This document shows, in pieces, positions 8,687-25,878 of a stretch of 64,000 bases of DNA; position 1 is the stretch's first letter, and every line of letters begins with the position of its first letter. The notes under the pieces were generated by a model. That model did not search any database and was not told the DNA's origin. It was given only the letters and a program-made list of their open reading frames with translations. The stretch covers positions 160,001 to 224,000 of the forward strand of contig CM000152.2 of NCBI GenBank assembly GCA_000004695.1. The letters run 5' to 3'. The position numbers were made by a program, and so were the translations under genes. The stretch comes from Dictyostelium discoideum (Eukaryota).

Positions 8687-10015
8687 ATGGCAAAAATAAT
8701 TAAACCACCAACACAAGAAGAAATGAGAGATTTAACATCATTATTATCATCAGGTGAACCATATGAAATATTAGGATGTGATCCTGATTCAACACAAAAA
8801 GAAATAACAAAAAGATATAGAGATTTAGCAAGAAAACATCACCCAGATAAACAACAGCATAATGGTAATAATAAAAACGATGGTGGTGATATGATGACAA
8901 AGATTAACAATGCATACAAGTTACTCTCAAATGAAAGATTTAAAGAAGTCTATGACGTCTATCTATTACAAGAGATGATGATGGATGGTGATGGTAGTGG
9001 TAGTGGTGGTGTTGATTTTGATACAGATAGAATATATCGTGAAGCTAGATTCAAAAACATCTTATTAACCTCACTTGGACTCTTATTCAACACTTTCTCA
9101 ATCCCATTCAGAACTATAGCTGTTGTAATTCAATCAAATCCAACCATAATCAAACCAATGACTGTACTAAAATCAATGACCAAAGGACACGGTTTCTTCA
9201 AAGGTCTATTCAGGGGCACCGCCTTCCTCCTCTCTTCATCAGTATTAGAATTAATTCGTGAGAAATCAATTGAAACTTCATTTAAATATATTGACAATTT
9301 AATAATACCATCATCATCATCATCTGACAGTGGTAGTGGTAGTGGTGGTAGTAAAAAATTACAAATTTTAAAATCATTTATAAATATATTCACTAAAGCA
9401 ATATTAAATTTCCCAATTCGTATGATTGGTAATATTTTAATATTGTCACCACCTGGGTATGGTGTATTTAGAGTTATTAAGGATGTAATATTACGTTATG
9501 ATCAAGCCACCACTGGTAATATCATTATGAGCGTTAGCAATGGTAGAGCCCCGCCAATTCAGTGGAAGAATTTATTCTACTCGTTGGGTTATTCATTGGC
9601 AATTGTTTATAGTAAAAAGTTGATTATAAAAGGTTTGAAGGTTATTGATATTCATGTTTACGAAGGTAGTATCAAAGATCCAAATAGTAAACTCTATCGT
9701 TACTCAAACTATCTCCTTAGTAAAACTTTATTCCGTGTCGCTTTGCAAACCATCCTCGTTAATCCATTCGATGTTTTGCATTCTCAATATCCACGTATCC
9801 TTTTAGATAGTTGGTTAAATGGTTCCATACCTGTACCTGTTGCTCAGAATCCAATCTCATTGGCAATCGATATCTATCGCTCAAATAATAATAGTATAAC
9901 TAAATTCTTTAATGGTGTAATTCCATTATTCTTTTGTAAGATTTTCGAAGATTTTTGTGAGCAATGTGATGTTAGTGATATTGATGATTATGAAGATGAC
10001 GATATTTATGCTTAA
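8687..10015 (+). CDS. DnaJ (J-domain) protein, 442 aa
   Basis: N-terminal J domain with the HPD motif (YEILGCDPDSTQKEITKRYRDLARKHHPDK...AYKLLSNERFKEVYD). Intact single ORF ending in an acidic DDYEDDDIYA tail. Confidence 0.88.
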   Translation: MAKIIKPPTQEEMRDLTSLLSSGEPYEILGCDPDSTQKEITKRYRDLARKHHPDKQQHNGNNKNDGGDMMTKINNAYKLLSNERFKEVYDVYLLQEMMMDGDGSGSGGVDFDTDRIYREARFKNILLTSLGLLFNTFSIPFRTIAVVIQSNPTIIKPMTVLKSMTKGHGFFKGLFRGTAFLLSSSVLELIREKSIETSFKYIDNLIIPSSSSSDSGSGSGGSKKLQILKSFINIFTKAILNFPIRMIGNILILSPPGYGVFRVIKDVILRYDQATTGNIIMSVSNGRAPPIQWKNLFYSLGYSLAIVYSKKLIIKGLKVIDIHVYEGSIKDPNSKLYRYSNYLLSKTLFRVALQTILVNPFDVLHSQYPRILLDSWLNGSIPVPVAQNPISLAIDIYRSNNNSITKFFNGVIPLFFCKIFEDFCEQCDVSDIDDYEDDDIYA

Positions 10016-19899: not shown

Positions 19900-21995
19900 T
19901 AACCAATTAATTTATTGCATACTCCACCAGTCAACAAATTCACGTTCACTTAATGAACCACTGTAATCACGATCAATTGAATGGAATAACATTTTAGTTT
20001 GACCTTTAGAGAAATAGTAACCTAAATGTTTAATGAGCTAATAAATTAAAAAAGTTAGTATTAATGAATTATTGTTTTTTTTTTTTTTTTTTTTTTTTTT
20101 TGTGCACATAAATGTTAAATTCATACTTTTTTAAATTCTTTTTTAGATAAAGTACCACTACAATTGGAATCATGAATTCTGAATGCAGCACTTGCGGCCA
20201 TCATTTTTTGTACAACATGTGGTGGTAAACCAACTGGAACTACAAAAGCAGCGGTTCTAGAATATGGAGTTGCATAAGAGTAAGTTGGTCTAGTGTAAGA
20301 ATAAGTTGATGTTGCACCATAACCGATAGCAGTTGTTTGATAGGCAGCATATGCAGTAGTTTGACCTGGATAAACACCCATTGGTGTTTGACCTGGATAA
20401 GCACCAGTTTGATAAGCAGCGGTAGTTTGTGAATATGCTGATACACCATATTGTTGTTGACCTGGATATGCACCCATTGGTGGTTGACCTGGATATGCAC
20501 CTTGTTGACCTGGATATGCACCTTGTTGACCTGGATAAGCACCTTGTTGACCTGGATATGCACCTTGTTGTGGTGGATAAGCACCCATTGGTGGTTGTTG
20601 ACCTGGATATGCTACTTGTTGTTGTTGTGGTGGATAAGCTCCTGGTTGACCTTGTGGTGGATAAGCTCCTGGTTGACCTTGTGGTGGATAAGCACCCATT
20701 GGTGGTTGTTGACCTGGATAGGCACCTTGTTGTGGTGGAACACCTGGTTGACCTGGATAGGCACCTTGTGGTGGTGGAACACCTGGTTGACCTGGAGCAC
20801 CTGTCTTGGCAAGTGTATTTTGTACACCTAAAAATAAAATAAAATATTTGTTATTATTACAGTGTCCTACATTTTTGGTATTTTGGTTTCAAAATAACTA
20901 AATAGCCAAGAAAACTTACCTTGTTGTGGTGGATAGGCACCTGGTTGACCTGATTGTTGTGGTGGGTAGGCACCTATTTATTATTTATAATTTATAATTT
21001 TTATTATTATTTTTTTTTTTCCAAGTTTTAAAAATAAAATAAAATAAAGAATTAATAAAATCCAATTTGTTTCCAAGAAATGATGATTTGTCAAAATCTG
21101 GAAAAAAAAAAAAAAAAAGTGAAAGGTTGTAGTAATTAAAATAAACATACCTGGTTGACCTGGTTGTTGTGGTGGATATTGACCTTGTTGTTGTGGTGGA
21201 TATTGACCTGGTTGACCTGGTTGTTGTGGTGGATATTGACCTGGTTGACCTTGTTGTGGTGGATATTGACCTGGAGCACCTGGTTGTTGTGGTGGGTATC
21301 CTAAAAATAAATAAAATAATTTAAATATTAATTAACTATAAAATTAAATTTGGATGGGTATAGTTTTTTAAATTATAAATTTCGAAATTTCCAAGTATTT
21401 GTGTAATCTTCAAATCCAATTACTATATATTAATGATAAATCCAATATTTTTATATAACCTCTACTTGAACTATCCCTATCGTAAAAAAAGTGAACATAC
21501 CTGGTTGACCTGGTTGTTGTGGTGGATATTGACCTGATTGACCTGGTTGTTGTGGTGGGTATCCTATAAATAAATAAAAATATAACCAAAATTAGAGTTT
21601 TTTCAATATTGTATAAAATTTCCCTGTAGTGATTTATGTTTTTTTTTTTTTTTTTTTGTTTTTTTTTTTTTTTTGTTTTTCTTCTTTTCCTTATTTCCAA
21701 TGTGATTAATAATAAAATCCATACCTGGTTGACCTGGTTGTTGTGGTGGGTATTGACCTGGAGCACCTGGTTGTTGTGGTGGGTATTGACCTATTAATAT
21801 TCAAATATCAAGAGTTAATATGAGAAATGTTTGAAATTGGATATATATATAAAAAAAAAAATATCTCCAATTTTAAATGAAATCCAAAACATTTTTTTTT
21901 TTTTTTTTCTATTAATTTCTTTTTCCATATCTATATTCCTATTGTATAAAAGTAAACATACCTGGTTGACCTGGTTGTTGTGGTGGGTATTGGCC

Positions 21996-22081
<86 letters not shown>

Positions 22082-22605
22082 TATTTATTAATTAATTTAT
22101 TAATTTATTTATATTAGTAGTTTACTTTTAAGAAGAATTTGAAGGTACTCCGATAAATCATCAATTCTATTCCTCTTTTATCATATAATTAAAAACATAC
22201 CTGGTTGTTGTGGTGGGTATTGACCTGGAGCACCTGGAGCACCTGGTTGTTGAGTACCTGGATATGGTGGTAAATTAGAACCTGGAGCACCTGGTTGTTG
22301 TGGTGGATATTGACCTGGAGCACCTGGAGCGCCTAATTTGTGAAAGTTTGAGAACTAATTAGTTTTTGTTTATTTTTTATTATTTTTTTTTTTTTTATTT
22401 TTCATTTTTTTTTTATTTTTTTTCAGCCTAACCCGATGATTAAATTGTAAGTGTTATTATTAAATCGGTGTTAAATAATTAAATATACAATACCTGGAGT
22501 TGATTGGCTACCTGGAGCACCTGGAGTACCCATTACTTTAACTGGCATTTGTGAGTAAAAATCAGCAGCTGAACCAGCTGGTGGTGGGTTTTGTGGATTT
22601 TGCAT
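19900..22605 (-). CDS. [11 protein letters not shown]-repeat protein with C-terminal EF-hand pair, 9 exons: complement(join(19900..20037,20127..20827,20920..20973,21151..21300,21501..21563,21725..21790,21962..21994,22201..22332,22494..22605))
   Basis: ATG at 22605 opens [37 protein letters not shown]. Each of the first seven exons ends ...CCAG|GTATG (or CAAG|GTAAGT) in phase 1. Each following exon starts just after a (T)nAG acceptor with two bases that complete a Gly codon. Exons 2-7 are 132, 33, 66, 63, 150 and 54 nt and encode (G)[15 protein letters not shown] repeats. Exon 8 continues the repeats and runs into the track ORF 20121..20699, ending ...[19 protein letters not shown]|GTATGA. The terminal exon (acceptor ttattAG at 20038-20039) encodes a second EF-hand ([14 protein letters not shown]) and stops at TAA 19900-19902. 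Total 1449 nt, in frame. Confidence 0.75.
21997..22078. repeat. (ATT)n microsatellite, about 27 units, inside intron 2 of the GYPPQQ/EF-hand gene
   Basis: Perfect trinucleotide array seen directly in the sequence. Confidence 0.95.
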
Positions 22606-22800: not shown

Positions 22801-23062
22801 CAAATTATTCACAATTTCGATCAGTGATCACAAAATGGTTTAACACACAAGCAATCAAAGAAAAAAAAATGAAAAAAAAATAAAAAAAAAATAAAAAATA
22901 AAAAAATGAGACTTTTTGGTTTTTTTCAAAAAAAAAAAAGAAAAAACTTTTTAAATTATCTCTATTTTTTATTTTAAAAACTAATATTATTATTATTATT
23001 TTATCACAACTATATTATTACTCTATATTACTATATTTTATTATTCTATTATTACTATTATA

Positions 23063-23068
<6 letters not shown>

Positions 23069-23152
<84 letters not shown>
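23069..23152. repeat. (TTA)n microsatellite, intergenic
   Basis: Perfect trinucleotide array. Confidence 0.9.

Positions 23153-24301: not shown

Positions 24302-25878
<1,577 letters not shown>

Follow-up and report, generated by a model that had tools for sequence, protein, structure and literature searches.

The stretch of DNA analysed here, referred to as the window, comprises 64,000 nucleotides (nt) of the Dictyostelium discoideum genome (strain AX4, chromosome 3; GenBank assembly GCA_000004695.1, contig CM000152.2, positions 160,001 to 224,000 of the forward strand) and has a base composition of about 20% guanine plus cytosine (GC). At 19912-22605 of the window, on the minus strand, lies what is very probably a single gene of nine exons, encoding a long repeat domain followed by a pair of EF-hands, in which the common phase of the repeat introns follows from the codons used. 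Splice reconstruction from the sequence joins the nine exons into one open reading frame (ORF), giving a coding sequence (CDS) of 1437 nt and 478 amino acids (aa) with no internal stops. The features of this gene, in the order of transcription, are the following.

Exon 1, 22494..22605, minus strand: 112 nt, with the ATG at 22605-22603, ending with the first base of a Gly codon.
Intron 1, 22333..22493, minus strand: 161 nt, GTATTG..TAG, phase 1, with alternative borders possible.
Exon 2, 22201..22332, minus strand: 132 nt, phase 1-1.
Intron 2, 21995..22200, minus strand: 206 nt, phase 1.
Exon 3, 21962..21994, minus strand: 33 nt, phase 1-1, a single repeat unit.
Intron 3, 21791..21961, minus strand: 171 nt, GTATGT..TAG, phase 1.
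Exon 4, 21725..21790, minus strand: 66 nt, phase 1-1, two repeat units.
Intron 4, 21564..21724, minus strand: 161 nt, GTATGG..TAG, phase 1, with a poly-A length that varies between strains.
Exon 5, 21501..21563, minus strand: 63 nt, phase 1-1, starting with GATACCCACCACAACAACCAGGT.
Intron 5, 21301..21500, minus strand: 200 nt, GTATGT..TAG, phase 1.
Exon 6, 21151..21300, minus strand: 150 nt, phase 1-1, five units with a DNA periodicity of 33 nt.
Intron 6, 20974..21150, minus strand: 177 nt, GTATGT..TAG, phase 1.
Exon 7, 20920..20973, minus strand: 54 nt, phase 1-1, with a single-nucleotide polymorphism (SNP) between strains at 20953 that gives S202P.
Intron 7, 20828..20919, minus strand: 92 nt, GTAAGT..TAG, phase 1.
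Exon 8, 20127..20827, minus strand: 701 nt, phase 1 to 0, holding the second repeat block, a Thr/Tyr/Ala-rich stretch, the pre-EF segment and EF-hand 1.
Family-specific pre-EF segment, 20217..20303, minus strand: residues 379-407, directly upstream of EF-hand 1, without a Pfam model.
EF-hand 1 Ca2+-binding loop, 20136..20171, minus strand: residues 423-434, recognised by Pfam and by the canonical pattern.
Intron 8, 20038..20126, minus strand: 89 nt, GTATGA..TAG, phase 0, with a TACTAAC branch-like site.
Exon 9, 19912..20037, minus strand: 126 nt including the TAA at 19912-19914.
EF-hand 2 Ca2+-binding loop, 19939..19974, minus strand: residues 459-470, recognised by Pfam and by the canonical pattern.

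The eight introns range from 89 to 206 nt and are all of the GT..AG type, seven starting with GTATN and one with GTAAG, and every one ending in TAG. Retention of any of them introduces an in-frame stop. GC content is 44-55% in exons 1-8 and 32% in exon 9, against 11-22% in the introns. Introns 1-7 are in phase 1 and intron 8 is in phase 0. The codon split at the phase-1 junctions is Gly in five of seven cases (G|GT, G|GA or G|GC), Ala at junction 6 (G|CC) and Val at junction 7 (G|TA). A preliminary description of this DNA had proposed a nine-exon gene on the minus strand, and the GT..AG exons indeed give an open frame of 1437 nt with the same exon lengths that it listed. Its symmetric 1-1 mini-exons carrying whole repeat units are recovered as well, exons 2-7 being phase 1-1 in the reconstruction, and the six-frame ORFs that it regarded as fragments or spurious (20121..20699 and four repeat-frame ORFs) appear in the ORF list.

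Over the repeats, ORFs in other frames or on the opposite strand are found at 20429-20842 and 20451-20831 (plus strand) and at 20240-20584 and 20612-20827 (minus strand). These ORFs, with repeats such as VVDLDMH and WWISTW, are by-products of the repeat periodicity. Antisense repeat ORFs are likewise called as ‘genes’ on an environmental contig (L003). A (TAT)n microsatellite at 21996-22102 fills half of intron 2, and a second microsatellite, (TAT/ATT)n, is present at 23050-23150 in the upstream intergenic region. The rest of the 64-kb window was found to contain neither a paralogue nor a similar repeat.

For intron 1, two pairs of borders can be considered. In the alternative pair the donor lies 5 nt downstream and the acceptor 22 nt upstream, so that exon 1 ends at 22489 and exon 2 starts at 22354. 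This intron is in frame and in phase 0, and adds IFSNFHKL to give a product of 487 aa. It is the only single-intron change that yields 487 aa, the product length annotated in the D. discoideum strain assembly GCA_054883475.1. Judged from the sequence, the borders given in the preliminary description (22493/22333) are slightly preferred, because they have AG|G exon flanks as in introns 2-7 and a CTAAT branch-like site, read from the sequence about 26 nt upstream of the acceptor at 22333. Neither donor candidate (GTATTG, GTATAT) has a G at +5, a base found at that position in the other seven introns.

Other assemblies bear on whether these exons belong together. In GCA_054883475.1, the called gene (L021:5591-8278) spans 2688 nt between the same ATG and TAA and has a product of 487 aa. 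The sequence identity between this gene and that of the window is 99.74%; the two differ in the poly-A lengths of introns 4 and 8 and in one exon 7 SNP (S202P), and in nothing else. As 487 aa need 1464 of the 2688 nt to be coding, the coding content is essentially that of the 1437-nt model with every mini-exon included. In a second strain assembly, GCA_054859355.1, a 506-aa product is annotated at the corresponding locus (L024:21276-21341), and the 19-aa difference between strains suggests a polymorphism in repeat or exon number. The D. cf. discoideum locus, and the locus of one further strain, do not extend as far as the gene.

Environmental sequences carry an orthologue of the gene. Joint Genome Institute (JGI) contigs from different samples (L003/L005; L004) contain it as an uninterrupted ORF of 485 aa. 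On L003, the N-terminus of the orthologue, MQNPSQPPPPGSAADHMSQMPVKV, matches the product of exon 1, the two having the start pattern MQNP..GSAAD..SQMPVKV in common. About 330 aa of GQYPP(P/Q) repeats are present, together with a C-terminal module that is 66% identical over the aligned C-terminal domain. The JGI contigs do not contain even the intron that is shared by Acytostelium and D. discoideum, and their leaders and trailers are short and AT-rich, from which we infer that they resemble mRNA. The contigs show that a single protein unites the sequence of exon 1, the repeats and the part encoded by the EF-hand exons.

These data also bear on the proposal that the locus is not one gene, the GC-rich segments being non-coding relics or the EF-hand exons forming a separate short gene like the homologues of 111-157 aa. 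Most members of the protein family are short, at 110-190 aa, and a short product could begin at the in-frame Met that opens ORF 20121-20699. However, the annotation of the other strain runs from the same ATG to the same stop over 487 aa, and the environmental orthologue has its N-terminus, repeats and EF-hands in one ORF. Moreover, in a genome whose non-coding GC is below 20%, segments that reach 50-55% GC and keep a perfect codon structure would not be maintained if they were non-coding. A division of the locus into separate genes or relics is therefore highly improbable.

The phase of the repeat introns can be traced to codon usage. Within the CDS, Pro is written CCA in 104 of 104 cases, Gln is written CAA in 91 of 91, and Gly is written GGT in 67 of 73. 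The patterns AG|G, AG|GT and MAG|GT are classical proto-splice or exon-flank patterns (PMC1574350). All 54 AG|GT sites in the CDS are in phase 1, as are all 60 AG|G sites, because Pro, Gln and Gly are written almost only as CCA, CAA and GGT. An AG|G exon flank would be possible only between the first and second bases of a Gly, Ala or Val codon. With only phase-1 sites available, every internal exon becomes symmetric 1-1 and holds whole repeat units, and the regularity of phase is consequently no independent evidence of modular design. In the Planoprotostelium orthologue, the introns of the repeat region are also all in phase 1 (G|GA, G|GT, G|CC), and those of the C-terminal module are in phases 0, 2 and 1. 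A repeat of three or four codons combined with the splice consensus leaves a single possible intron phase, and exon symmetry in such genes is no evidence of exon shuffling unless the distribution of AG|G sites has been checked.

The preliminary description compared this exon logic to that of the fibrillar collagen genes, a comparison that does not hold. In fibrillar collagens, the first codon of an exon is an intact Gly codon and the last an intact Yaa codon, which makes the exons phase 0-0, with sizes of 54 bp or derived from it (PMC2852846), whereas exons 2-7 here are phase 1-1 and measure 132, 33, 66, 63, 150 and 54 nt. Split Gly codons at exon junctions are instead a hallmark of collagen IV (PMC5395295), and are found here too, though this is a likeness of gene structure only. 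The repeats here are not the uninterrupted Gly-X-Y triplets of collagens but 11-mers and 7- to 9-mers in which Gly is not every third residue, and no triple helix is possible. The closest all-1-1 analogue is tropoelastin, in which all exons are 1-1. As in genes of the collagen IV and tropoelastin type, exons 2-7 of this gene are symmetric, and any of them can be added or dropped in frame.

Several points weigh against a single nine-exon gene whose intron phase follows from its codons. Composition explains the phase, not the presence of seven introns, and a C2-domain gene of D. purpureum has GQYPPQQP repeats in a single uninterrupted exon. The inclusion of each mini-exon, especially of the 33-nt exon 3, rests on sequence logic and on the product length in the other strain, as do the borders of intron 1. 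In addition, homology searches, including an exhaustive phmmer search, returned no D. discoideum protein for this locus.

An exact look-up in a collection of 15 billion proteins likewise found neither the 478-aa model, nor eight exon-skipped or read-through variants, nor the 192-aa ORF. Neighbouring AX4 proteins do occur in the collection, ORF 8687-10012 being identical to XP_002649165.1. The absence of a D. discoideum protein from the searches is a gap or masking in databases and not evidence of an unannotated gene; other strain assemblies already annotate the gene, which does not represent a new kind of system. If Swiss-Prot contains, for D. discoideum, an entry ‘Calcium-binding protein P’ (cbpP) with such an architecture, the protein is already catalogued. 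Literature searches on the repeat motif and on calcium-binding protein P found nothing relevant. Han & Kang 1998, at first suspected to treat the gene, describes CBP3 instead. Elsewhere in the window, ORF 24538-25878 (plus strand) is adenosylhomocysteinase-type by appearance, and about 60 consecutive Asn residues interrupt it. Asn homopolymer expansion inside a conserved enzyme is typical of D. discoideum.

The number of introns had been called unusual for an amoeba gene. D. discoideum genes are intron-poor, and this low intron density, together with the intron-free repeats of the D. purpureum gene, bears the statement out. A possible though somewhat doubtful origin of the array is tandem amplification of an exon-plus-intron module by unequal crossing-over, the phase being inherited from one founder intron. 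Unequal crossing-over has been proposed for collagen and elastin genes, and such an origin is compatible with an intron phase that follows from codons. Features of the exons hint at such an amplification long ago. Exons 3-7 all (5/5) have TAC as the first Tyr codon downstream of the acceptor, and the rest of the repeat region has TAC 3 times and TAT 21 times (Fisher p=0.006), but this pattern could equally reflect a splicing constraint near acceptors. Exons 5 and 6 share their first 23 nt, in which the Gly codon is split in the rare form G|GA and a Gln is missing, and CAACAACCAGGTCAACCAG forms the end of each of exons 3-6, with GTATG next to it in the intron. Under extreme codon bias, however, identical exon DNA is expected for identical peptides, and it is a weak sign of duplication because codon bias alone produces identity. 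The strain products of 506 and 487 aa are consistent with continuing gain and loss of units. In contrast, the intron bodies lack similarity beyond poly-A and low complexity, as only poly-A scored above shuffles in pairwise alignments, and self-BLAST similarity ends 5 nt inside the introns.

Symmetric mini-exons could also be put to use. As functional cassettes, they would let alternative splicing include or remove whole units and so adjust how long the low-complexity domain is. Such cassette splicing is used by isoforms of tropoelastin and of the annexin VII N-terminal domain. In this gene the frame is kept when any of exons 2-7 is skipped, exon 3 is only 33 nt long, and the donor of intron 1 is weak, two alternatives being in frame. 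Yet the donors of introns 2-6 are all strong GTATG, and alternative splicing is rare in D. discoideum. Exon-skipped products are absent from the protein collection, though the full product is absent too. On balance, it seems quite unlikely from the sequence that the mini-exons serve in this way.

The protein encoded by the nine exons is strongly biased in composition. In residues 1-400, Pro accounts for 25%, Gln for 22%, Gly for 17% and Tyr for 10%, only five residues are charged, and the nearly uncharged repeat region of about 380 aa is presumably disordered. Mini-exons 2-7 encode 11-residue units of the form QYPPQQPG[Q/A]PG, corresponding to a DNA period of 33 nt. The repeats of exon 8 are units of 7 and 9 residues (GAYPGQQ / GAYPPQGQP; periods of 21 and 27 nt) and are followed by the Thr/Tyr/Ala-rich stretch. 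The literal string GYPPQQ is found only twice, each time across a splice junction; the main unit is QYPPQQ, with 10 occurrences. The linker before the EF-hands is Tyr-rich and conserved (Y.RP.YSY..Y.R.AAF..P.GLPPH).

The C-terminal part was examined for EF-hands with the hidden Markov models of Pfam and with the canonical 12-residue loop pattern D-x-[DNS]-x-[DNSG]-G-x-[ILV]-x-x-x-E. Pfam EF-hand_7 (PF13499) scores 38.2 bits over residues 417-475 (E=1.8e-9), the cut-off being 30 bits, and no other region of the protein has a Pfam match. The two canonical EF-hand loops of the preliminary description are thus both present, in a match above the gathering threshold. The pair does not fit in the C-terminal 45 aa assigned to it, but spans about 65 aa encoded by exons 8 and 9; the protein ends 8 residues past the second loop. 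The fold was modelled not on the window protein but on its closest homologue, P0001, which is 72% identical in the aligned module. AlphaFold2, run with the family alignment, gives P0001 four helices and a predicted local distance difference test score (pLDDT) that stays above 80 throughout the pre-EF segment and everything C-terminal to it, exceeding 90 over the helices and ranging from 81 to 93 in the stretch homologous to the pre-EF segment. Foldseek and PDB-sequence profile matches include centrin, calmodulin lobes, troponin C and polcalcin. The C-terminal module is confidently predicted to be a calmodulin-lobe-like EF-hand pair.

This module defines a family of amoebozoan proteins. When the C-terminus, the entire protein or a profile served as query, relatives were recovered from Acytostelium subglobosum, Planoprotostelium fungivorum and Physarum polycephalum (a transcript), along with dozens of environmental sequences. 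The exhaustive phmmer search gave 45 representatives, and the profile search 44 members at E<=1e-8. Common to the family members is a C-terminal module of about 105 aa, composed of the motif Y.RP.Y.Y..Y...AF..P.G.PPH and two EF-hands. Alignment A1 has 21 invariant columns, among them R10, Y19, P28, G30 and P33 of the pre-EF part. The N-termini are rich in Pro, Gly and Tyr, usually of 20-100 aa, and very variable in length. Compared with the D. discoideum protein, the module of other members (Acytostelium, Planoprotostelium, Physarum, L003/L004) is 49-66% identical, and a Pro/Gly/Tyr(/Gln)-rich N-terminus is common to them. The repeats of the D. discoideum protein alone amount to about 380 aa, whereas most members have short N-termini and a total length of 110-190 aa, and in D. 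discoideum and the L003 organism the repeat domain is the most expanded in the family.

The preliminary description had presented the repeats as fused in cis to the EF-hands. Both do occur in one protein, but the arrangement is no local novelty or fusion, because orthologues and homologues across Amoebozoa share the repeat-plus-EF-hand architecture. Repeats followed by EF-hands are thus the ancestral architecture of an uncharacterised amoebozoan family. The gene structures differ more widely. A. subglobosum SAMD00019534_074640 (157 aa) has a phase-0 intron after KKEFK(K/R) in common with intron 8 of D. discoideum. That intron is the only one in Acytostelium, whereas Planoprotostelium has three introns in the repeats, and the seven-intron array is seen only in D. 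discoideum.

Other family members show further arrangements. Some relatives (P0058, P0059, P0060, P0063 and P0065) have 2-4 whole modules in tandem with low-complexity linkers between them, and the relative P0012 has an N-terminal C2 domain. The pre-EF-plus-EF-hand module behaves as a mobile domain, and no family model covers it. For the P. fungivorum protein P0011 (annotated as a ‘calcium-binding protein’ of 549 aa), the 3′ end of the gene seems to be wrongly annotated. If an overlooked GT..AG intron of 37 nt (L002:7440-7476) is spliced out, the C-terminus typical of the family, ...SEREFCEYWVSTH*, replaces about 150 aa of unrelated sequence.

The domain structure allows a conditional account of function. 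The C-terminal EF-hand module is predicted to bind Ca2+. By analogy with the N-termini of annexins A7/A11 and of penta-EF-hand (PEF) proteins, the Tyr/Pro/Gln-rich repeat domain would act as a multivalent, low-affinity interaction or self-association domain. The protein would then be a Ca2+-regulated adaptor or scaffold. A more elaborate reading, which is very unlikely, would have the mini-exon array serve as a splicing-addressable (or strain-variable) length dial for the valency of a Ca2+-sensing scaffold, with the pre-EF segment held in the EF-hand cleft until Ca2+ releases it. If true, this would constitute a compact, genetically tractable, Ca2+-switched multivalent assembly in an amoeba. 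The analysis defines a conserved module of about 105 aa, comprising a Tyr-rich pre-EF segment and an EF-hand pair, that is widespread in Amoebozoa. D. discoideum is a tractable organism for gene knock-out and for testing long Tyr/Pro/Gln domains on Ca2+ sensors.

It has also been suggested that the repeats contain docking motifs for ALG-2. Accordingly worded, the repeats may dock PEF proteins (the ALG-2 homologues DdPEF-1/2) and so couple Ca2+ sensing to PEF-dependent membrane trafficking. The spacing YP-x5-YP occurs four times (residues 287-316), and with the composition resembles GYPPPPGGYP, the type-1-like motif given for annexins A7 and A11. There are also two instances of PGYP (PxYP) and one of PPYP. 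However, the strict motifs ABM-1 (PPYP, then YP after 4 residues) and ABM-2 (PxPGF) (PMC5037681) have zero matches in the protein, which leaves only the loose type-1-like spacing, and motif matches carry little information at 10% Tyr and 25% Pro. Docking of PEF proteins by these repeats is, on the sequence, unlikely.

The PEF proteins themselves (ALG-2/PDCD6, peflin, sorcin, grancalcin) resemble the protein in that a hydrophobic, Gly/Pro/Tyr-rich N-terminal extension precedes the EF-hands. They have five EF-hands, the fifth of which (EF5) serves in dimerisation, whereas the protein described here has two and nothing corresponding to EF3-EF5; with two EF-hands only, it is not a PEF protein. Derivation of the pair from EF3-EF4 of a PEF protein was considered and rejected, since PEF proteins do not outscore calmodulin or centrin; with the family profile, a PDCD6 homologue from Leishmania obtains a score similar to that of calmodulin.

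The other resemblance is to annexins A7 and A11 and to Dictyostelium annexin VII/C1, in which a long low-complexity N-terminus rich in Tyr, Pro, Gly and Gln likewise precedes a C-terminal domain that binds Ca2+. GYPPQQ repeats are present in Dictyostelium annexin VII. The protein described here is not an annexin: a Pfam scan found no annexin repeat even at E<=1, and the annexin core of those proteins has its counterpart here in the EF-hand pair. Near-identical GQYPPQQP / GYPPQQ repeats are also found on C2-domain proteins, namely D. purpureum DICPUDRAFT_153687 (L025:1501-2712) and Entamoeba dispar P0016. In Amoebozoa, a similar low-complexity domain is joined to different Ca2+-binding domains, the EF-hand and C2, and annexin is a further Ca2+-binding domain that carries such a low-complexity domain.

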